From Minisyncoccia bacterium (GTDB taxonomy: Bacteria; Patescibacteriota; Minisyncoccia; Phycocordibacterales; CALRBL01), in contig JBBRPW010000001.1 of the NCBI GenBank assembly GCA_038227435.1, forward strand, positions 9,632 through 73,631: a DNA stretch of 64,000 bases, read 5' to 3'. The first letter of the stretch is position 1. Each line of letters starts with the position of its first letter. The position numbers and the translations under genes were made by a program. Below the pieces are notes generated by a model, which searched no databases, had not been told where the DNA came from, and worked only from the letters and a program-made list of their open reading frames with translations. Positions 40,927 through 48,995 of the stretch are shown one piece after another.

Positions 40927-41676
40927 ATGTTTGAAAAATATCTTCAAGAATTAGGATTATCCGATAAGGAGGCAAGTGTATATATTTCACTTCTCCAGGT
41001 AGATAACGACTCAGTACTCGATTTGTCTAAAAAAACAAAAATTAATAGAACCACTATCTACCCAGTCCTTGAAAGCTTGGCCAAAAAAGGTCTTATTAGC
41101 GAAGCACAAGTTGATAAAAAGATTAGATATCACGCCGAACCACCCGAACGATTAGAAACATATGTTGAGCGGCAAAAAACAATGCTTCAAGAGCATTCAA
41201 ATCGATTAAAAGATGTAATTCCTCAGTTAAAAAGTATTCAGAGGGAAACTGGGGAAAAACCAATGGTTAAGTATTTTGAAGGTAGACAGGGTGCGATCAG
41301 TTCTCTTGAAGAGTTTTATAATTCAATCGGAAAAGGTGGCACTGCATATTTAATTTATCCAAAAGATGCAATAAAAAATATCTTCAATGAAAAAGAAATT
41401 GAAAAATATCGATCAATACGCCTTAAAAGGGAAATAAAGACAAAAGTAATAAGTACTTCGTCAAAAAACGACATAATTTCTGATTCAACAGGTAATCGAA
41501 TACAAATTGACGGAGAAAAGTATCCCATCACTTCGGATATTGCTATTTACGAAGATAAAGTAAGGGTTACTATTTTGGGGAAGTCTTTAGCAGCATTTTC
41601 AATAAAGAGTCAGGATCTTGCTGATACACTTCGTAGTTTATTTGATTTGGTATTTGATCTATCAAAAAATAAATAA
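40927..41676 (+). CDS. TrmB-family HTH transcriptional regulator.
   Basis: N-terminal LGLSDKEASVYISLL...INRTTIYPVLESLAKKGLI winged-helix region typical of TrmB. Confidence 0.6.
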   Translation: MFEKYLQELGLSDKEASVYISLLQVDNDSVLDLSKKTKINRTTIYPVLESLAKKGLISEAQVDKKIRYHAEPPERLETYVERQKTMLQEHSNRLKDVIPQLKSIQRETGEKPMVKYFEGRQGAISSLEEFYNSIGKGGTAYLIYPKDAIKNIFNEKEIEKYRSIRLKREIKTKVISTSSKNDIISDSTGNRIQIDGEKYPITSDIAIYEDKVRVTILGKSLAAFSIKSQDLADTLRSLFDLVFDLSKNK

Positions 41677-41696
41677 GAGACTTATATAATAAAAGA

Positions 41697-41738
41697 TACC
41701 CCGATCGCACAACGTGCTGCGATCGGGGTATTTGGTTT
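41697..41738 (+). terminator. Rho-independent terminator ACCCCGATCGCAcaacgtgcTGCGATCGGGGT + TTTGGTTT.
   Basis: 12-bp perfect GC-rich stem followed by a T-rich tail. Confidence 0.6.
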
Positions 41739-42326
41739 AGACCCCGTGGTCTTTTACTCCGAGAACGATAAGGTATTGCCCTTCGCGTTCTCGAACGATT
41801 TCATTGGCCTACCCCTCGGGGTAGAAAATAAGGTGTGTTTACTAGTCAGACATACTATTTTTCCTTCGGTCGGGGTTCTCTCTAACAAGGTTTGGATTTT
41901 GAGGACAGCTTTTAGCTACTAGTCCCAGCCAACAGCCGATTCGGGCGCTGTTGGCTGGGACTTTCACTTTCGGCTAGTCGCCCATATTACCTCCTTGTTA
42001 AGGTTCGGGAATCGTTCATAAGCAAGAGCGCTAATGAATTTCCAAATAAAATTTAGCATAATAAAATTGGTCTGTCAACATGTTTTAACTAAATTGAGTA
42101 TATTTGATCAATTTTATATAAAATAAGGCTATGAATATAGCTTCAATAGTGTTTTTACTTGTTATTGTCGGTTTTTGTGTTTTGACACCTGAAAAATACT
42201 ACAAAACAAATATTTTTTAATGCAATTAATGTAGTTTTATGTCATATCTAATTTACATATATTGTATATAATATCCTTATTTATCAATACTATAATGGAA
42301 TATTAAATTTAATCTGTCATAAACAC

Positions 42327-42354
42327 TTGACAAAAATATAAATATCCGTATTAT
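42327..42354 (+). promoter_or_regulatory. Sigma70-like promoter TTGACA-16 nt-TATTAT driving the island's + strand transcription.
   Basis: Consensus -35 and near-consensus -10 with 16-nt spacing, about 200 nt upstream of the first island ORF. Confidence 0.4.
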
Positions 42355-42478
42355 CTTTCTCAGTTAGAACTTTTCACCTCAACCCCCAAAGAACAATGCG
42401 TTACTACGTGCTCCCCGACGGGACCGTGGTGATCAACCCCTCTGACGCCTACTAAGGCGTTACGGGATGATCCCACTT

Positions 42479-42530
42479 CTGCGGCTTAGGCACGCGGGGG
42501 AATAATGCACCCTGGCAACAGAATCGCATC
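42479..42530 (+). repeat. Repeat family R1, copy a (CTGCGGCTTAGGCACGCGGGG...CCTGGCAACAGAAT), in the 5' leader of island ORF-A.
   Basis: A 21/21 identical block plus a 14-nt block shared with copy b at 43777-43828. Confidence 0.55.
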
Positions 42531-42561
42531 CACTAAAACATCACCCTAATTTTTTACAACT

Positions 42562-42843
42562 ATGAAAAAGATCGTGATCGGAATGATGGTCGTTCTCGCT
42601 CTACTCTTGTCGTTTGTTGCAGGTGTCTTCTACGGCACCAACGCAACTATCGCCAAGATGGAATTGCTGGAAACCCCCAGAGGCCGCATTCTTTACTACT
42701 TCATTCCGAATACATCTGCTTCGACAGAAATTTATTCGCTTGATAGTGGAGAAGATGCTGATCTCTACGAGGATTCAACACAAATTCCTGACGAAGACGT
42801 GACTGAGAGGAAAGACTCTCTGAAGGACGACACTAACCTTTAA
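42562..42843 (+). CDS. Island ORF-A: small membrane-anchored protein with an acidic C-terminal tail.
   Basis: 93-aa ORF. TM helix IVIGMMVVLALLLSFVAGVFYG. The last 14 codons and the stop lie inside repeat R2a. Confidence 0.4.
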   Translation: MKKIVIGMMVVLALLLSFVAGVFYGTNATIAKMELLETPRGRILYYFIPNTSASTEIYSLDSGEDADLYEDSTQIPDEDVTERKDSLKDDTNL

Positions 42844-42897
42844 TTCAAAAGTGTTTATTTTTGCGACCGTTTTAAATGGTTGGTTGGCGTGCAGCGC
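42801..42897 (+). repeat. Repeat family R2, copy a (97 nt), immediately upstream of HHR1.
   Basis: 94 of 97 positions identical to copy b at 45769-45866. Contains hairpin GAGAG-gaaaga-CTCTC. Confidence 0.7.
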
Positions 42898-42935
42898 TAA
42901 GAGAAAACTTTAAATCCTAACTATAAAAAGTTAGA

Positions 42936-42987
42936 TCTGTCTCGAAATGTAATTTCGACTGATGAGCTCTAGAGAGCGAAACAGAAA
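42936..42987 (+). ncRNA. Hammerhead ribozyme, type III topology (HHR1).
   Basis: TCTGTC|TCGAAATgtaATTTCGA-CTGATGA-GCTCtagaGAGC-GAAA-CAGA. All core nucleotides present (C3-A9, G12-A14, A15.1-U16.1, GUC cleavage triplet). Three stems fold as required. Confidence 0.75.
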
Positions 42988-43436
42988 GTACTTTAAAACC
43001 AAGAAAAATAATAAAAGTTAAATTCGTCTGCACTTGAGAGTGTTTTTAAAAATATTCTCACGTGCAGGCGAAAGTAGCGCCAAAGCATGTGATCGGTAGT
43101 ACACATTTAAATCTTGAGTGAGTGTCTCGGATTTAAGTGGAGTTGTACTACGTATTAATTCATCACCAAAAAAATGATTAGTGGGATGTTCTGATTGTTC
43201 TCGTACGCCTCGCGAGAGACCAACAGTCAAAATGTCACATCATTTGAGTAGGGACAAGCAGTTCGTTGCTGTGCACCGAACTTTGATGAATTATGGCTGT
43301 GAACGATCTGAGGTGAGTACCGCAAGGTAACTCAGTTTGATCTAGTAATAGTTATGGGGAAAGCGCATAAGGCTTGGTCGCCAAGTGTGTATTACCTGCT
43401 ACAAAATTTCTAAACCTCAACCAAAAAAGAATTACT

Positions 43437-43772
43437 ATGGCACATTACAGTACTTTTATTTTTCAGTTGCCAGGATGTCCCGAGATTTATATGAGTACTC
43501 GGTACAACATTATTCAGGACTTTGATTGCATTCGAAATAAGTTTGGAAAGGGGTTGATTAAGTTCAAACCTTTCTACAAGCCTGATCGAGTGCAATTTAC
43601 TCCTCCGAGTAATGGAGAAAAGCATCCTTGGGTATTGCTGACTAAATATCAGCGTAGGAAGATTCAAACCTTCCTCAATGTGGTCTACCGAAAGGGAAAC
43701 CACAGGGTACCTCGGAGATGGCGCAAGTTCGTAAAGAACGACGGCGTCTTTCCAAAGGAGTGTCTCGACTGA
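43437..43772 (+). CDS. Island ORF-B: small basic protein (R/K-rich C-terminus).
   Basis: 111-aa ORF from ATGGCACATTAC; no homologue recognised. Confidence 0.35.
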   Translation: MAHYSTFIFQLPGCPEIYMSTRYNIIQDFDCIRNKFGKGLIKFKPFYKPDRVQFTPPSNGEKHPWVLLTKYQRRKIQTFLNVVYRKGNHRVPRRWRKFVKNDGVFPKECLD

Positions 43773-43776
43773 GCAA

Positions 43777-43828
43777 CTGCGGCTTAGGCACGCGGGGTAC
43801 ACATACTACCTGGCAACAGAATTGTATG
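43777..43828 (+). repeat. Repeat family R1, copy b. It follows the ORF-B stop and precedes HHR2.
   Basis: Shares CTGCGGCTTAGGCACGCGGGG and CCTGGCAACAGAAT blocks with R1a. Confidence 0.55.
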
Positions 43829-43857
43829 AAACTGACTAGTAATTATTTACTAGTCAC

Positions 43858-43909
43858 TCTGTCTCGAAATGTAATTTCGACTGATGAGCTCTAGAGAGCG
43901 AAACAGAAA
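43858..43909 (+). ncRNA. Hammerhead ribozyme, type III (HHR2), 52/52 identical to HHR1.
   Basis: Same sequence as HHR1, preceded by the 9-bp palindrome GACTAGTAA-ttat-TTACTAGTC. Confidence 0.75.
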
Positions 43910-44304
43910 TACATTAAAAATAAAATAATTTCTTTACACCTCATCCGGCGTTTATTTGCGGCACGAAAATAACCACGCAAACAAAAAATGTGGAAACCCG
44001 CTAGACGCTGGTTGAGGTGTAATGAACAAAAAATATAGGTTGCTAGTTAACCTGATCCGAGGAGCTCTGGTTTTCCATAAGGAAAACTAAAACTTTCGGG
44101 CTTTAGTGGGGCAAGCAACGTAACGCCGGATGCGTACGTGTGAGGCCAAAAGCACAAAAACTACTTGTTTGCCCAGCTATCGGGGAATAAGCGTCGTTCG
44201 TGGTACGGCGTTATGAGCATAAGTATCAAAATCTCCGAAGCCATTCGCCCTTAAGGGTGAAATGGTTCTAGTGAGGAATTTTGAGAACGTTCTCTAACAA
44301 CCAC
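43910..44304 (+). ncRNA. Roughly 395-nt ORF-free, highly structured spacer between HHR2 and HHR4. Candidate large structured RNA of unknown class.
   Basis: Long-range inverted repeats TTACACCTCA/TGAGGTGTAA and CATCCGGCGTT/AACGCCGGATG. Local hairpins GTTTTCC-ataa-GGAAAAC and CCATTCGCCC-ttaa-GGGTGAAATGG. No ORF over 40 codons on the + strand. Confidence 0.35.
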
Positions 44305-44357
44305 TTTGTTTATCGATGTGTTTCGATACTGAAGAGCTCAAAAGAGCGAAACAGAAG
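44305..44357 (+). ncRNA. Hammerhead-like ribozyme variant (HHR4): CTGAAGA core (position 7 = A), GUU cleavage triplet, short stem III.
   Basis: TTTGTT|TATCGAtgtgttTCGATA-CTGAAGA-GCTCaaaaGAGC-GAAA-CAGAAG. Position 7 is tolerant and U17 is permitted but weaker. Confidence 0.5.
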
Positions 44358-44393
44358 ATCTTTAAATTTCAGCAACTTCAACCCCCTAAAAAA

Positions 44394-44699
44394 ATGCAAA
44401 ACCCATATGGTTCGGAGAAGCAGTTGGAAACCACCGAACAGCAGATCGACCGCCGTGTCGCGCTCAGTGTCCTCGAAGTGAGCTACCATTTTTGGGGCGC
44501 ACTTCGGGGTGGTGGCGAACGGGCCGCTGCGAACCTTTTGAACAGTTTGAAAGGTGCAGCACCACGCGGCTACTACTTCACTGTCTCGGCAGATAGGGAG
44601 TGGCGTCCGCGTGCAAACAAAGACGGAACGTTCGAGTTCCGCCGCCTGTTTCAGCCCCGAACCAACACTGTCGCCATCATCGGATTGGCAAGACGATAG
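44394..44699 (+). CDS. Island ORF-C: hypothetical protein.
   Basis: 101-aa ORF starting at ATGCAAAACCCA, directly downstream of HHR4. Confidence 0.35.
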   Translation: MQNPYGSEKQLETTEQQIDRRVALSVLEVSYHFWGALRGGGERAAANLLNSLKGAAPRGYYFTVSADREWRPRANKDGTFEFRRLFQPRTNTVAIIGLARR

Positions 44700-44719
44700 T
44701 GCCGGAAGGGTTGAAACAC

Positions 44720-44830
44720 ACGTTAAGAGTCACCGTAAAAAACTCTGGTCTGATCCACTAACAACGATCACTCGTTTATCGTATGCGAGCTTCAAAAAAC
44801 GTTCGGGTCCGCCCGTGATAGCGGCGTCGG
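44720..44830 (+). repeat. Repeat family R3, copy a (about 110 nt), followed by hairpin GGGGAAtttatTTCCCC.
   Basis: About 93% identical to copy b at 46431-46540. Some differences are compatible with conserved pairing (AACGA/TCGTT versus AATGA/TTGTT). Confidence 0.65.
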
Positions 44831-44916
44831 TAGGGGAATTTATTTCCCCACTTTATTGAGCCTGTCACATTCGGTGATTGGTTCATCAAGTTCGTTCTTT
44901 TCAAAAAAATAAAAAT

Positions 44917-45330
44917 ATGAAACTTAACGTCAAGGCTATCCGTAGTTTTGTGCTTAGTCAGGTAGTGGACAAGGAAGAGTCAGAAGCACTCATCTTTTAT
45001 TTGGCTGGCATCAATGCCGAATTCTATCTCGTAGATCCTCACACCTGCGGAGAAGAAGCAGGAGAGATTGGCTTCATGGGTTTCAACTTCACCGACAAGG
45101 TGAATGATGCAATGAATGCTGGTCTTTGGGCTGTGATTTACGACGATGGGCGCGATTATGCTTACCATAAGTACTTCCTTTTCGAGGAAGACGCTAAAAG
45201 TTTTGCAAATCGGGTTGGTGGAGGCTTATTGAAGTACACCAACACTGCAAATCGGCTGAAAGTTATTGCCCACTTTAGAAAGTTGGGCTTAATCGAAGAA
45301 GTTCCTGAAGAAGAAGGAATTCTCGAATAA
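44917..45330 (+). CDS. Island ORF-D: hypothetical acidic protein.
   Basis: 137-aa ORF from ATGAAACTTAAC. Confidence 0.4.
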   Translation: MKLNVKAIRSFVLSQVVDKEESEALIFYLAGINAEFYLVDPHTCGEEAGEIGFMGFNFTDKVNDAMNAGLWAVIYDDGRDYAYHKYFLFEEDAKSFANRVGGGLLKYTNTANRLKVIAHFRKLGLIEEVPEEEGILE

Positions 45331-45463
45331 CTTTAAGTCAATTCATATACGTTCTGCATAACGTAAAAAATGTAGCTGTTTTGCTCAATATGCGTGCAAG
45401 AAATTGCATGTCGACATATTGGCTTCTTCAGTGAAAAAAGAAGGTAAGAAAGGAGGATCAACA

Positions 45464-45760
45464 ATGATCATCGACCTTTCTCTTCGTAATGAGCGCCTGT
45501 ACAAGGGTTGCGAAATTACGGAGGTGGCAGGCCGGCTGAACTTGGTTACTCCAGTTGCTGATGCAGTTAATATCGTTGGCCGCAACGCCAATGGGTTGAT
45601 TGCAGAAGTTGCTGCGAGTGATCGGAGCGAAGTCGAGCTTACGGGTCCGATGGCGGTTTGGTCTTACTTGATCGTTTTCCACGCTGTGGTTCACGCCTTT
45701 TCGAAGGTGTACTACAACGATGGGAAAGGTCGGGTACTGATCGCCGCCCACGGCGCCTGA
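45464..45760 (+). CDS. Island ORF-E: hypothetical protein preceded by a strong Shine-Dalgarno.
   Basis: AAAGGAGGatcaacaATG gives a canonical SD at optimal spacing. 98-aa ORF (MIIDLSLRNERLYKG...). Native genes in this window generally lack an SD. Confidence 0.5.
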   Translation: MIIDLSLRNERLYKGCEITEVAGRLNLVTPVADAVNIVGRNANGLIAEVAASDRSEVELTGPMAVWSYLIVFHAVVHAFSKVYYNDGKGRVLIAAHGA

Positions 45761-45768
45761 TGCCATCT

Positions 45769-45866
45769 GACTGAGAGGAAAGACTCTCTGAAGGACGACA
45801 CTAACCTTTAATTCAGAAGTGTCTATTTTTGCGACCGTTTTAAATGGTTGGTTGGCGTGCATCGCT
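45769..45866 (+). repeat. Repeat family R2, copy b, non-coding here, immediately upstream of HHR3.
   Basis: Near-identical to R2a. Confidence 0.7.
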
Positions 45867-45890
45867 GACGGATAGATGTTCTATCCGTCA

Positions 45891-45942
45891 TCTGTCACAG
45901 GGTATTACCTTGTCTGATGAGTTCAAAAGAACGAAACAGAAG
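45891..45942 (+). ncRNA. Hammerhead ribozyme, type III (HHR3), a sequence variant of HHR1/2.
   Basis: TCTGTC|ACAGGGTattACCTTGT-CTGATGA-GTTCaaaaGAAC-GAAA-CAGAAG. Full conserved core. Preceded by hairpin GACGGATAG-atgtt-CTATCCGTC. Confidence 0.7.
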
Positions 45943-45970
45943 ATCTTTCAAAACTCCACAAATAATTTTT

Positions 45971-46204
45971 ATGAATAATCATTCGAAAGAATTGGTATGT
46001 GTTCGAGTGATTAATGTATGCGCATCCATTAAAGGCTCTTTTGGATTAGGTCACTTTATAAAAGTCGATCTGTCTGGAGTCAGTGATTGGTATATATACT
46101 GCTCAAAAACTAAACCAATTGTCGGACAAGAAATTTCCATGTTTCTTACTATGTACGGCAAATGGACATGTCTCGATGACAGAGACAATGTCGAATCATT
46201 TTAG
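45971..46204 (+). CDS. Island ORF-F: small Cys-containing hypothetical protein directly downstream of HHR3.
   Basis: 77-aa ORF from ATGAATAATCAT. Confidence 0.3.
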   Translation: MNNHSKELVCVRVINVCASIKGSFGLGHFIKVDLSGVSDWYIYCSKTKPIVGQEISMFLTMYGKWTCLDDRDNVESF

Positions 46205-46430
46205 TCGAATTAAAACCCTATGATCAACATCATCAAATCTACTCGCTATAAGGTGAGTGGCTTCATTCGTAACTGCGTTAAAAACCCTCGCACGAGCTGG
46301 AAGCTGCGGAAGCAATTGGCTTCTCGCAGCATGCGTCGCCTCGATCGAAAGGTGATCGCTGCAACGGATGTTGAGGAGCATTCGTCGTGTGTCGTATACA
46401 ATAACTTCCTGGGCTATCCGTAGCAAGGAA

Positions 46431-46540
46431 ACGTTAAGAGTCAACGTAAAAAACTCTGGTCTGATCCACCAACAATGATCACTTGTTTATCGTATGCGAG
46501 CAACAAAAAACGTTCGGGTCCGCCCGTAATAGCGGCGTGG
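46431..46540 (+). repeat. Repeat family R3, copy b, ending at the island's terminal terminator.
   Basis: See R3a. Confidence 0.65.
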
Positions 46541-46542
46541 TT

Positions 46543-46570
46543 AAGAGGAACATCAGTTCCTCTTTTTTTA
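46543..46570 (+). terminator. Rho-independent terminator AAGAGGAAcatcagTTCCTCTT + T8.
   Basis: 8-bp stem followed by a T run. Confidence 0.6.
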
Positions 46571-46615
46571 TTTCTAAATCAAATTAAGTTAAAATTTATA
46601 AACCTACTTATTAAT

Positions 46616-47053
46616 TTATTTATCGAGCTCTGAAATTATTTTTTGAGCAATATCTTCTTTTTCTCCATCTTTATAAATAATATGTTCACCATATCTCATA
46701 CTCACTCCTTTATAACGAGGGATTAAATGTGCGTGTATATGTAATATTTCCTGGCCTCCATATGAGCGATTGTTAATGAGTAGATTTACTCCATCAAGTT
46801 TAAGAGCATTCTCTAAAACGTTTGCCACCCTTTTAACTCCTTTCATCATTGTTCCAAAAAGTTCTGTGTCGATCTGAAATATGTCGTCAGCATGTGTTTT
46901 TGGAATAATAATTGTATGTCCTAAGGCAAGAGGATTAATATCGAGGAATACAAAGACATCTGCGTCTTCATAAAGCTTTGTTGTGTTAACTTCTCCTGTA
47001 ATCATTTTGCAAAAGATGCAATCTTTATGGGTTAATTCGTTATTCATGGCCAT
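46616..47053 (-). CDS. HIT-family (histidine triad) nucleotide hydrolase.
   Basis: HIHAHLIP histidine triad motif. Confidence 0.85.
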   Translation of the reverse strand: MAMNNELTHKDCIFCKMITGEVNTTKLYEDADVFVFLDINPLALGHTIIIPKTHADDIFQIDTELFGTMMKGVKRVANVLENALKLDGVNLLINNRSYGGQEILHIHAHLIPRYKGVSMRYGEHIIYKDGEKEDIAQKIISELDK

Positions 47054-47093
47054 ATTTTAACACGTATACGGGCTAGCATGATACAATCTTTTC

Positions 47094-48995
47094 ATGTTTT
47101 CAGTACTACCTGGTATTCCAGAACAAGATTCTGCACGAAATGAATTAGCAAAATATAGCGATAGAATAAAACACCTGCTTTATCATAGAGGCATTAAAAC
47201 TGCCAAAGAGGCACAACATTTTTTGGACCCGGTATATGAGCATAATCATGATCCGATGTTGATGTCGGGCATGAAAAAAGCTACTGAACGTTTTTTACAC
47301 TCAATTGATACAAACGAACATATTGTAATTTATAGTGATTACGATGCTGATGGAATTCCTGGTGCAGTTGTGCTCGCCAGTTTCTTAAAGAGAATTGGTT
47401 ACACTAATTTTTCACACTATATACCTGACAGACACCTTGAAGGATTTGGTGTAAACATGGGAGCGATCGATGAAATAATTTATAGAGCAAAAATACATGA
47501 AATTCCGCATACTTTTTTATTAATTACCATCGACTGTGGAATATCAGATGTCGAACCAATTCAAAAAGCTAAAGATTTGGGAATCGATGTAATTATCACT
47601 GATCATCATATGCCTGGGAGTATTTTTCCTGCTGCATATGCCATTGTTAATCCCAAAATAAGTATTCAAGAGCAACAGGTATCTCCAAAAAAAGCAAAAA
47701 ATACAGAAGAATTAATTTATCCCTTCAATATGCTTTCAGGATCCGGTGTAATTTTTAAGTTTGTTCAAGGATTAATGTTACTCCGTGATTTTAGTGATAA
47801 AGGTTTTAAACCTGGCCATGAAAAATGGTTACTTGATATGGTGGGTATTGCAACAATGTCTGACATGGTTCCTTTAATTGGAGAAAACCGAATTTTTGCT
47901 CACTTCGGTTTGAAAGTATTGCGTAAATCTCCTCGAATTGGTTTGCAAACACTTCTTTCAAAACAGAAAATTGATCAACGCTACATTAACGAAGAAGATA
48001 TTGGATTTAGTATTTCTCCTCGTATAAATGCTGCGTCAAGAATGGGAAAAGCCGATAAAGCCCTTGAATTATTTTTGACCGATGATGAGTCGAAGGCATT
48101 AGAACTTTCAATTTATTTGCAGAAGTTAAACGATGAGCGTAAGGGATATGTTGCAGCTATTGTGAAAGATTTGAAAAAGCACCTAGAGGATGACCTTCTA
48201 GCTTCCGATAATTCAGACATTCCAAAATGTATTATTGTAAAAGGAAATCCCGATTGGAGACCATCACTTTTAGGACTAGCAGCAAATAGTTTAATTGAGC
48301 AATATAAATGCCCAGTATTTTTATGGGGGCGTGGAGAAGGAGGGACTATTATTAAGGGTTCTTGTAGAACTTATGTAACTGAAGGCATGAATGGGCATAT
48401 GAGTTTGGTTAATTTGATGCATAAAGCTGAAGAAATTTATAGCACTGAGCAGATTAAGAAAATCAAAAAAATAGATAAAGAAAAAATAGAAGAAATTAAA
48501 AAATTATTTCTTCATTGTGGAGGTCATGCAATGTCTGGGGGATTTGCTGTCGACCATGAACACATTCATCTCCTTCCTGAATATTTAGAAAAAGCAGTTA
48601 AATTTTATGCAAAAGATTTTTTAAATGAAAAAAACAATATTTCGAATGTACTCAAAGCCGATCTTGAATTAACACTCGATGAAATCGATATGCGTCTTTA
48701 TAATGAAATTTCGCAACTTGCACCATTTGGGGTAGGGAATCAAAAACCACTTTTACTCATTAGAAATGTGATTCCACAAGAAGTTCGTCAATTTGGTAAA
48801 GCTAAGGAACACTTTGAAATGAGTGCTCGAAATGGAAAAGGTCGCACGATAAAAATGCTTTGTTTTTTTGCGAAACCTGAAGATTTTCATGTTGTACCCG
48901 ATGTATTAAAACCTGTTTCAATTGTCGGGCACATTGAGCACTCTCGTTTTTTGGGAAAAAGTGAAATTAGGCTTAGATTGGTCGAAGTCTTCTAA
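47094..48995 (+). CDS. recJ: Single-stranded-DNA-specific exonuclease RecJ.
   Basis: DHH motifs (YSDYDADGI, ITDHH) and DHHA1 domain (GGGHAMSGG). Confidence 0.9.
   Translation: MFSVLPGIPEQDSARNELAKYSDRIKHLLYHRGIKTAKEAQHFLDPVYEHNHDPMLMSGMKKATERFLHSIDTNEHIVIYSDYDADGIPGAVVLASFLKRIGYTNFSHYIPDRHLEGFGVNMGAIDEIIYRAKIHEIPHTFLLITIDCGISDVEPIQKAKDLGIDVIITDHHMPGSIFPAAYAIVNPKISIQEQQVSPKKAKNTEELIYPFNMLSGSGVIFKFVQGLMLLRDFSDKGFKPGHEKWLLDMVGIATMSDMVPLIGENRIFAHFGLKVLRKSPRIGLQTLLSKQKIDQRYINEEDIGFSISPRINAASRMGKADKALELFLTDDESKALELSIYLQKLNDERKGYVAAIVKDLKKHLEDDLLASDNSDIPKCIIVKGNPDWRPSLLGLAANSLIEQYKCPVFLWGRGEGGTIIKGSCRTYVTEGMNGHMSLVNLMHKAEEIYSTEQIKKIKKIDKEKIEEIKKLFLHCGGHAMSGGFAVDHEHIHLLPEYLEKAVKFYAKDFLNEKNNISNVLKADLELTLDEIDMRLYNEISQLAPFGVGNQKPLLLIRNVIPQEVRQFGKAKEHFEMSARNGKGRTIKMLCFFAKPEDFHVVPDVLKPVSIVGHIEHSRFLGKSEIRLRLVEVF

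Follow-up and report, generated by a model that had tools for sequence, protein, structure and literature searches.

The locus considered here raises the question of whether two divergent hammerhead-like motifs, HHR3 and HHR4, are working ribozymes, and what such elements would do among small genes. They lie in a 64,000-nt stretch of DNA (hereafter, the window) from contig JBBRPW010000001.1 of a Minisyncoccia bacterium (phylum Patescibacteriota; assembly GCA_038227435.1), together with two further copies, HHR1 and HHR2. We regard HHR3 and HHR4 as credible ribozymes and not look-alikes. Judging from sequence, they are very probably genuine self-cleaving hammerheads, two of four that are predicted to cut one long transcript of small genes. 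The fuller reading is that both would be active cis-cleaving type III hammerheads of a compact class, belonging with HHR1 and HHR2 to one transcription unit (~42327 to ~46560) in a GC-richer, most likely chromosomal, island of small genes. To this reading we assign a probability of about 0.8.

Two complete type III motifs

The four copies are given below with their scores on two covariance models: R1, built from viral hammerheads, and RF00008, the Hammerhead_3 family of Rfam.

42933..42988, + strand: HHR1, type III hammerhead; predicted cleavage after C42941; 56.5 bits on R1, 40.3 bits on RF00008
43855..43910, + strand: HHR2, with a ribozyme body identical to that of HHR1; predicted cleavage after C43863; 60.2 bits on R1, 41.9 bits on RF00008
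44302..44358, + strand: HHR4, type III hammerhead with A7 (CUGAAGA), a GUU triplet and a U.G pair in stem III; predicted cleavage after U44310; 59.2 bits on R1 (E 6.5e-14), 23.8 bits on RF00008
45888..45943, + strand: HHR3, type III hammerhead with a canonical core and GUC; predicted cleavage after C45896; 61.9 bits on R1 (E 1.2e-14), 40.1 bits on RF00008

HHR3 and HHR4 have the topology of type III hammerheads, with stem III open and stems I and II capped by loops. In order, HHR3 consists of aucuGUC^ (^ being the predicted cleavage site), ACAGGGU-auu-ACCUUGU (a stem I of 7 bp, one of them G.U), CUGAUGA, GUUC-aaaa-GAAC, GAAA, and CAGA. The corresponding parts of HHR4 are cuuuGUU^, UAUCGA-ugugUU-UCGAUA, CUGAAGA, GCUC-aaaa-GAGC, GAAA, and CAGA. 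The catalytic core C3 U4 G5 A6 N7 G8 A9...G12 A13 A14 is complete in both (CUGAUGA...GAAA and CUGAAGA...GAAA), the N-U-H triplet is GUC in HHR3 and GUU in HHR4, and the A15.1-U16.1 pair is present in each. Position 7 of the hammerhead accepts any base, and N-U-H triplets besides GUC also cleave, usually somewhat more slowly.

When aligned to the class model described below, both motifs fit over their full length and form 15 of 15 pairs, with one U.G pair in HHR4. The pairs adjacent to the core (1.1-2.1, 10.1-11.1, and 15.1-16.1) are A-U, G-C, and A-U in HHR3 and U-A, G-C, and A-U in HHR4. Watson-Crick pairs flanking the core were the criterion used by Perreault et al. 2011 (PMC3088659), and both motifs possess them. 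The stem III strands UGU/ACA(G) are common to all four copies in the window. An earlier, sequence-only reading of this DNA had located and read both motifs as we find them, including the A7, GUU, and stem I of HHR4. Its view that the stems of HHR4 had turned over went too far for stem II, since GCUC/GAGC is shared with HHR1 and HHR2 and the loop alone differs.

A compact class with covarying stems

Relatives of these motifs were sought among viral and cellular sequences. A scan of IMG/VR with the pattern CTGTC-N14-26-CTGANGA-N10-18-CGAAACAG returned at least 120 contigs, and most of the matches listed are compact type III hammerheads of nearly the same architecture as the window copies. The class is built of a stem I of 6-7 bp with a UGUGU-like loop, a stem II of 4 bp with an AAAA or GAAA loop, and a stem III of ~5 bp (CUGUC / GAAACAG). 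The core and stem II of HHR3 (CUGAUGAGUUCAAAAGAACGAAA) occur in identical form on 65 viral contigs. For cellular genomes, the pattern CTGANGAG-N4-AAA-N3-CGAAACAGAA was run over 185,579 species genomes and matched at least 119 contigs. The class model recognized 179 hammerheads in 100 sources, and 150 class copies aligned to this model (alignment A4) were used for positional counts.

Model R1 was derived only from A1, an ungapped MAFFT alignment of 35 IMG/VR hammerheads of equal length, and is independent of the window. Run across the full 64 kb with filters off, R1 gave the four window copies 56.5-61.9 bits (E about 1e-13), as opposed to 14.3 bits for the best match that is not a hammerhead.

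Pairing in the stems is maintained by compensatory change. In the viral alignment A1, 95.4% of stem positions are paired, all six stem I pairs and three of the four stem II pairs covary, and none of 500 shuffles equaled the observed values. Among 144 distinct genomic copies, those of the window included, 97.5% of stem cells are paired, compared to 76% in shuffled sets and 33-50% with slid partners. This set displays double changes in 13 of 15 pairs and 541 compensatory cells, and again 0 of 500 shuffles equaled any measure; the alignment was fitted to the class model, which favours pairing, yet the ungapped A1 shows the same picture. Stem III covaries too when it is left free in the search (CAG/CUG, CGG/CCG, and AGA/UCU), and the triplets then found are GUC, GUA, UUC, and UUA. 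Meanwhile, C3, G5, A6, G8, A9, G12, A13, A14, and A15.1-U16.1 are invariant in all 150 copies of A4. As for the loops, loop I starts with UG in 139 of the 150 and loop II is AAAA or GAAA in 136. HHR4 carries the class consensus in both (UGUGUU and AAAA), and HHR3 in loop II only.

The sequence-only reading had taken a fixed core with changing stems as the signature of functional ribozymes rather than chance motifs, and the class bears this out. The four window copies that it proposed as a covariation set proved insufficient: the bodies of HHR1 and HHR2 are identical, leaving three distinct sequences, which are too few for a covariation statistic alone, and it is the wider class that supplies one. 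Covariation, whose absence that reading had named as evidence against function, is present in both the viral and the genomic sets.

These motifs are easily missed with the public model. RF00008 detects HHR1, HHR2, and HHR3 at 40-42 bits (E about 1e-5 over the whole window), and HHR4 only when a 96-nt stretch is searched by itself. At its gathering threshold, RF00008 detected 1 of 34 class copies in the first 20 Patescibacteria loci. The Rfam family (clan CL00010; viroids, satellites, and plants) has the same open-stem-III topology, 11 core nucleotides, NUH site, and capped stems I and II. Relative to its consensus, stem II and loop II of the window class are shorter, appearing as a 4-nt deletion in alignments. 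Because the shortfall is class-wide and stem II and loop II are longer in the Rfam seed, the low scores reflect the model and not the motif. The practical lesson is that the Rfam gathering cut-off hides the compact class.

A predicted transcript with four cleavage sites

The window has a GC content of ~35%, and between its TrmB and HIT genes lies a ~5-kb island of up to 46% GC. The island is preceded by TIM, PGK, and a TrmB-family regulator and followed by HIT (on the - strand), RecJ, RNase H, and ComEC. The elements that bear on its transcription and on the surroundings of HHR3 and HHR4 are the following.

42327..42354, + strand: putative sigma-70-type promoter, TTGACA-16-TATTAT, matching 11/12 positions, the best match in 41600-47100, in the AT-rich spacer after the TrmB gene
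44283..44294, + strand: small palindromic hairpin GAGAACGUUCUC, a weak HHR4 counterpart of the class hairpin; 36 nt fold with -4.5 kcal/mol
44394..44699, + strand: ORF-C (open reading frame, ORF), 101 amino acids, first ORF on the predicted fragment that starts at the HHR4 cleavage site
45867..45889, + strand: strong hairpin GACGGAUAGA-ugu-UCUAUCCGUC, abutting stem III of HHR3 and present in the context fold; 36 nt fold with -18.3 kcal/mol
45971..46204, + strand: ORF-F, 77 amino acids, first ORF on the predicted fragment that starts at the HHR3 cleavage site
46543..46572, + strand: intrinsic-terminator-like hairpin with a T run, the putative transcript end

The four ribozymes are located between the promoter-like and terminator-like sites, both of them consensus matches, and on the same strand as the small ORFs. 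We infer that a ~4.2 kb transcript would be cut by them to give five fragments, with lengths of about 580, 922, 447, 1586, and 676 nt. A weaker terminator-like site is found at 44833-44849, at the end of repeat D2a. The D2 repeat (44720-44849 and 46431-46572) spans 113 nt at 92% identity; both copies end in a terminator-like hairpin, and the second closes the island.

An upstream hairpin is a conserved feature of the class. The 36 nt located 5′ of the motif fold with a mean of -10.1 kcal/mol, whereas shuffled sequences reach -4.3 (p about 1e-25) and random windows -4.6 (p about 1e-22). For 119 of 140 copies, the distance from the end of the hairpin to the 57-nt motif is 0-2 nt, which puts this end ~3-5 nt before stem III. 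The proximity of a start codon on the other side is also shared. The sequence-only reading had placed HHR3 and HHR4 30-40 nt upstream of a small ORF each. Counted from the motif ends as it had drawn them, this is accurate for HHR4 (36 nt to 44394) and slightly too long for HHR3 (28 nt to 45971). The closeness as such extends to the class, with raw medians of 23 nt in the viral set, where the leaders are A-rich and G-poor, and 40 nt in the genomic set.

Based on these findings, we propose that each ribozyme would fold as the polycistronic RNA emerges and cut after H17, at 42941, 43863, 44310, and 45896. The upstream piece would then finish in a 2′,3′-cyclic phosphate just 3′ of a hairpin, which may let it resist 3′ exonucleases; the hairpin at 45867..45889 would thus become the 3′-terminal hairpin of the product upstream of HHR3. 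The downstream piece would carry a 5′-OH enclosed within the stem I hairpin, with 75-85 nt to the next start codon, and might resist decay that depends on the 5′ end. In this manner each gene block could gain its own stability and translation, the ribozymes acting as natural insulators or operon punctuation. The conserved flanks suggest that both cleavage products are stabilised.

Elements of this type and their clustered arrangement are already known, and the processing role proposed here agrees with the one that Perreault et al. put forward and in part demonstrated (PMC3088659). In that study of clustered hammerheads in bacteria and prophages, three tandem arrangements were all cleaved in ~2 kb transcripts in vitro, and one set in vivo (PMC3088659). 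The clusters of Perreault 2011 and de la Peña 2017 (PMC3088659, PMC6155905) are likewise co-oriented and intergenic, lie a few hundred to ~1500 nt apart, and flank genes or small non-conserved ORFs. Processing of a polycistronic RNA was proposed for them as well, and an anti-defence-type gene is found nearby (ardA there, a CARF/SAVED-like protein here). Unlike the published prophage clusters, the window displays no prophage hallmarks, its host belongs to Patescibacteria, and all its copies are compact type III, whereas many published ones are type II with pseudoknots. A review describes hammerheads that lie close together and flank small non-conserved ORFs, with a persistent link to phages, and calls their function in bacteria open (PMC6155905). 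The concrete layout seen here, of a promoter-like site, four ribozymes, and a terminator-like site, makes this question more testable.

A comparison can also be made with engineered parts. In RiboJ-type synthetic insulators, a satellite hammerhead is joined to a downstream hairpin; cis-cleavage removes the upstream context and leaves a fixed 5′ end led by the hairpin. The window elements differ from RiboJ in being natural and in having an extra hairpin upstream, at the 3′ end of the preceding product.

Alternative folds and the 3′ flank

Several observations weigh against the activity of HHR3 and HHR4. Neither reaches the RF00008 gathering score of 48.5. Loop I of HHR3, UAUUA, departs from the UG start of most class copies, and the tertiary contact between loops I and II, to which hammerheads owe fast cleavage at physiological Mg2+, may be weaker for it. 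HHR4 unites three rarer features (A7, GUU, and the U.G pair in stem III) with a weak upstream hairpin. Thermodynamic folding gives stems I and II and misses the short stem III; for HHR3 it also yields rival pairings (UCAUC/GAUGA and a helix of AAAGA/UCUUU) of about equal energy, and the folding z-scores are only -1.7 to -2.7. In addition, since ORF-C and ORF-F have no homologues, a role in translation is conjecture.

The second of the rival pairings in HHR3 involves a sequence that recurs behind many class members.

44357..44363, + strand: 3′ flank motif GAUCUUU after HHR4, a variant of [GA][TA]TC[TA]TT
45942..45948, + strand: 3′ flank motif GAUCUUU after HHR3, pairing with AAAGA of loop II/stem II in a near-isoenergetic alternative fold

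Of 141 genomic copies, 76 have a GUUCUUU-like motif ([GA][TA]TC[TA]TT) no more than ~10 nt away from stem III, compared to 3.6% of control windows. With G.U allowed, it is complementary to the AAA of loop II and the 3′ strand of stem II, GRRC. The 5′ strand of stem II is G-Y-Y-C in about 96% of the genomic copies and less so in the viral ones. Only the genomic copies, mostly from Patescibacteria, show this flank and the restriction to G-Y-Y-C; viral copies of the same build are devoid of the GUUCUUU flank, and the 5′ strand of their stem II is not limited to pyrimidines.

This complementarity raises the possibility that the hammerheads are conditional switches, in which the 3′ motif pairs with loop II and the stem II 3′ strand to form an inactive conformer, so that cleavage is regulated or the fold is locked open afterwards. 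The potential for such pairing is well above background: in 41% of 141 copies, the 28 nt that follow can form at least 6 contiguous bp with loop II AAA plus GRRC, compared to 3-4% in three controls. Moreover, the fixed GUUC can replace the stem II 5′ strand through G.U pairs because that strand is nearly always G-Y-Y-C. For HHR3 in its context, the alternative is the minimum-energy fold, within 0.3 kcal/mol of the centroid fold (stems I and II kept, stem III not). Yet the alternative helix has only 5 contiguous pairs in HHR3 and HHR4, about 46% of class members have no 3′ motif, and when the 3′ products are folded to minimum energy, only 34 of 75 have the motif paired, with no constant partner. 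No ligand or protein partner for such a switch is known. We consider a switch unlikely, and a lock or switch acting after cleavage a hypothesis only.

Two other explanations of the flank were discarded. If GUUCUUUGA were a -35 promoter box, a consistent -10 box should follow, which is not the case, and the distance to the start codons is too short. Pairing of the motif with the stem III 3′ strand in a simple hairpin would leave loops that are too small, and the motif has no constant partner in the folds.

Variant positions of HHR4

The sequence-only reading had considered that HHR4, or HHR3, might turn out to be decayed. In this scenario HHR4, and perhaps HHR3, would be a decaying, catalytically dead copy of a duplicated module, with only HHR1 and HHR2 active. 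The rarer features of HHR4, its weak upstream hairpin, its 23.8 bits on RF00008, and the atypical loop I of HHR3 are what one would cite in its favour. These features are, however, recurrent within the class. Position 17 of A4 is C in 114 copies, U in 28, and A in 8, so that GUU makes up 19% of the class; GUU is also used by two copies of a Moraniibacteriota island. Position 7 is U in 138 copies, C in 10, and A in 2. A metagenome scan for CUGAAGA provided 17 unique A7 copies, of which 15 have intact stems I, II, and III of differing sequence, and two combine A7 with GUU as HHR4 does. HHR3 and HHR4 retain every known essential position, their stems are fully paired through changes that are compensatory and not disruptive, and HHR4 scores higher than HHR1 on the class model. 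Decay is thus improbable and finds no support in the class, and the A7 and GUU of HHR4 are natural recurrent variants that can help to calibrate hammerhead searches.

Distribution in Patescibacteria

Compact type III hammerheads appear to be enriched in Patescibacteria. Among the matches listed for the species-genome scan, 64 of 80 titles name Patescibacteria lineages (Saccharibacteria, Paceibacterota, Nomura-, Kaiser-, Taylor-, Moranii-, Falkow-, Berkel-, and Zambryskiibacteria), 12 are bacteria without a lineage name, and 4 are other taxa (Caldiserica, Bacteroidales, and two archaea). We read this as a strong indication rather than a rate.

Clustering is also common. Among the best 150 of the 179 copies, 39 of 98 loci carry 2-4 copies, which are co-oriented in 37 of the 39 and mostly spaced by 270-2700 nt. 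Four contigs that encode homologues of the island protein ORF-E (described below), L181 from Parcubacteria and L182-L184 from Moraniibacteriota, display four class hammerheads each, on the gene strand. The Moraniibacteriota hammerhead island follows a TrmB homologue, like the island in the window. The genes that come after class members mostly have no family: 11 PHROGs were found for 100 proteins of the viral set and 30 Pfam families for 106 of the genomic set, with no common cargo gene. Some class members precede housekeeping genes, such as those for CTP synthase, the RNA polymerase alpha C-terminal domain, and SpoU methylase.

In the searchable literature, which leaves subscription journals outside its scope, we found no paper that ties hammerheads to Patescibacteria, the candidate phyla radiation (CPR), or Saccharibacteria. 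Hence, the enrichment in this lineage, the flank architecture (upstream hairpin plus GUUCUUU-like motif), and the blind spot of Rfam may be new at the level of the class. They point to a very large and apparently unreported reservoir in Patescibacteria, for which cultivated Saccharibacteria could supply direct mapping of RNA ends.

Repeat modules and the origin of the island

Two repeated modules accompany the hammerheads.

43777..43837, + strand: D5b, conserved RNA module with a pseudoknot, immediately before the hairpin of HHR2; the other copy, D5a, is at 42479-42540
45768..45866, + strand: D4b, repeat module upstream of HHR3; 97% identical to D4a (42800-42898) upstream of HHR1

D4 is a 99-nt repeat that comes before the hairpin and hammerhead of HHR1 and HHR3, and its first part encodes the 14 C-terminal residues of ORF-A. 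This peptide (TERKDSLKDDTNL*) is encoded by the second copy too, in frame and right after the UGA stop of ORF-E. Read with an alternative code in which TGA is sense, ORF-E alone becomes appreciably longer, running into the D4 tail; the ORFs do not gain in general, and such a code was discarded as the source of the small ORFs. D4-like modules lie upstream of hammerheads in loci L205, L215, L302, and L181.

D5 spans ~60 nt and follows the scheme CUGCGGCUUNGGCACGCGGGG-[stem]-CCUGGCAACAGAAU-[strand], with one invariant hairpin and a second hairpin that covaries. A covarying pseudoknot joins the loop of the second hairpin to the strand that follows GGCAACAGAAU. Compensatory changes affect 7 pairs among 8 sequences, which 0 of 500 shuffles reproduced. 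Outside the window, D5 is found at L205:5560-5625, L212:5431-5365(-), L305:4933-4998, L213:818-880, L252:2500-2560, and L244:1185-1245. It is located directly after stop codons and, in 4 of the 8, ~30 nt upstream of a hammerhead. Comparison with Rfam (including twister, pistol, hatchet, HDV-like, and RAGATH) assigned it to no family, the only match being one of 14 bits to the alpha_tmRNA 3′ end, which shares ACCUGGCAACAGAA. D5 is a candidate for a new structured RNA of the type found near ribozyme-associated genes.

Locus L205, from Ca. Paceibacteria, holds both D4 and D5 modules joined to hammerheads; a noncoding module of the window is 94% identical to it, and stems I and II of its hammerheads diverge from those of HHR1 through compensatory substitutions. 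In the Logan assembly of SRR19962015 (L001 and L308), the same island appears in short contigs whose ends lie at or near repeated D4/hammerhead modules. As these contigs break at repeats, such islands are likely to be fragmented in, or lost from, metagenome-assembled genomes built from short reads.

Such repetition might also be expected if the ribozymes served a selfish or mobile module, be it D4 or D5 with hairpin and hammerhead spreading as a unit, or a hammerhead-flanked RNA that circularises through the shared stem III, like retrozymes and viroid-like RNAs. Copies of the modules within the island are 82-97% identical, those in other Patescibacteria reach 94% identity beside unrelated ORFs, and the Logan assembly of the same sample breaks at the modules. 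Excised segments could even pair their own two ends, because all four copies share the stem III strands. This explanation is nonetheless very improbable, as no reverse transcriptase, transposase, or integrase is found in or next to the island, and the conservation of the modules is equally explained by function at the RNA level, given the covariation of D5. Spliced or circular products of clustered bacterial hammerheads were looked for by Perreault et al., and none were found (PMC3088659).

Finally, chance hits to a short degenerate consensus have next to no probability: the core is short, a loose pattern (CTGANGA-N8-30-GAAAC) expected 0.67 times per window has four matches here, and 1 of 100 shuffles also got four, but four full-length, co-oriented matches of 56-62 bits inside 3 kb, against a 14-bit background and with class-specific loops and flanks in common, are ruled out as accidents by the R1 scores and the class covariation.

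As to its origin, the island has phage-like traits: the genes are small orphans, the CARF/SAVED-like protein is of a type carried by phages, and the core and stem II of HHR3 are near-identical to viral copies. No prophage hallmarks (integrase, phage structural or replication genes) were found in or beside the island, which is thus not located in a recognizable prophage, and megablast of the island against 50,697 phage records gave no match. Among viral contigs, 34 matched the pattern of the Patescibacteria-type flank and none of these held a hammerhead by the class model, a negative that is limited by the probable under-sampling of CPR phages. The housekeeping genes found behind some class members likewise speak against a recognizable prophage. 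A RecJ-based search for an orthologous empty site in the 185,579 species genomes, which exclude the window's own genome, found no relative.

We tentatively suggest, as a possibility that is speculative and somewhat doubtful, that the subclass is a lineage-wide RNA-processing cassette of Patescibacteria (CPR) and not a phage passenger. Such a cassette would comprise the hairpin, the compact type III hammerhead, the GUUCUUU flank, and sometimes D5. It might punctuate and insulate transcripts from small genes that evolve fast, and from certain housekeeping genes, with the 3′ motif serving as a lock or switch after cleavage. If this were true, the cassette would be unannotated in thousands of genomes because nearly all copies score under the Rfam threshold.

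Other genes and noncoding segments of the island

One protein of the island has a recognizable family.

45464..45760, + strand: ORF-E, 98 amino acids, with a stand-alone CARF/SAVED-like (Csx3-like) fold; the sole conserved ORF of the four searched

The family of ORF-E includes at least 700 proteins at 65-79% identity, from Parcubacteria, Moraniibacteriota, Gemmataceae, metagenome-assembled genomes of Lutibacter, and phage-like contigs, with a Parcubacteria protein at 79%. Its AlphaFold2 model is confident (pLDDT, the predicted local distance difference test, of 95). The sequence has no match in the PDB, and the likeness to CARF, SAVED, and Csx3 comes from fold comparison only; in its predicted fold, ORF-E resembles sensors and degraders of cyclic oligonucleotides, which is a statement of similarity.

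The other ORFs are orphans. ORF-C has no homologue among 1.84 billion representatives besides itself and spurious matches to repeat proteins, ORF-F matches only itself among 5.8 billion clustered proteins, and the homologue search for ORF-D likewise returned only a self-match. Comparison of the island ORFs with Pfam and PHROGs, the two databases with which ORF-A, ORF-B, and ORF-G were compared, produced nothing significant, with weak matches at E > 0.007. ORF-C and ORF-F are best regarded as putative genes.

The segments after HHR1 and HHR2 (43000-43436 and 43911-44300, ~400 nt each) contain no convincing ORF, only mini-ORFs of 16-22 codons, and may be noncoding RNAs. If cleaved, 43864-44310 would be released as a free RNA of 447 nt that lacks any evident coding capacity. 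Between the TrmB gene and the putative island promoter, two long perfect hairpins (41692-41731 and 41923-41962) enclose ~190 nt of GC-richer sequence that has no Rfam match, and this region (41690-41965) could be a pair of terminators or an unannotated small RNA.

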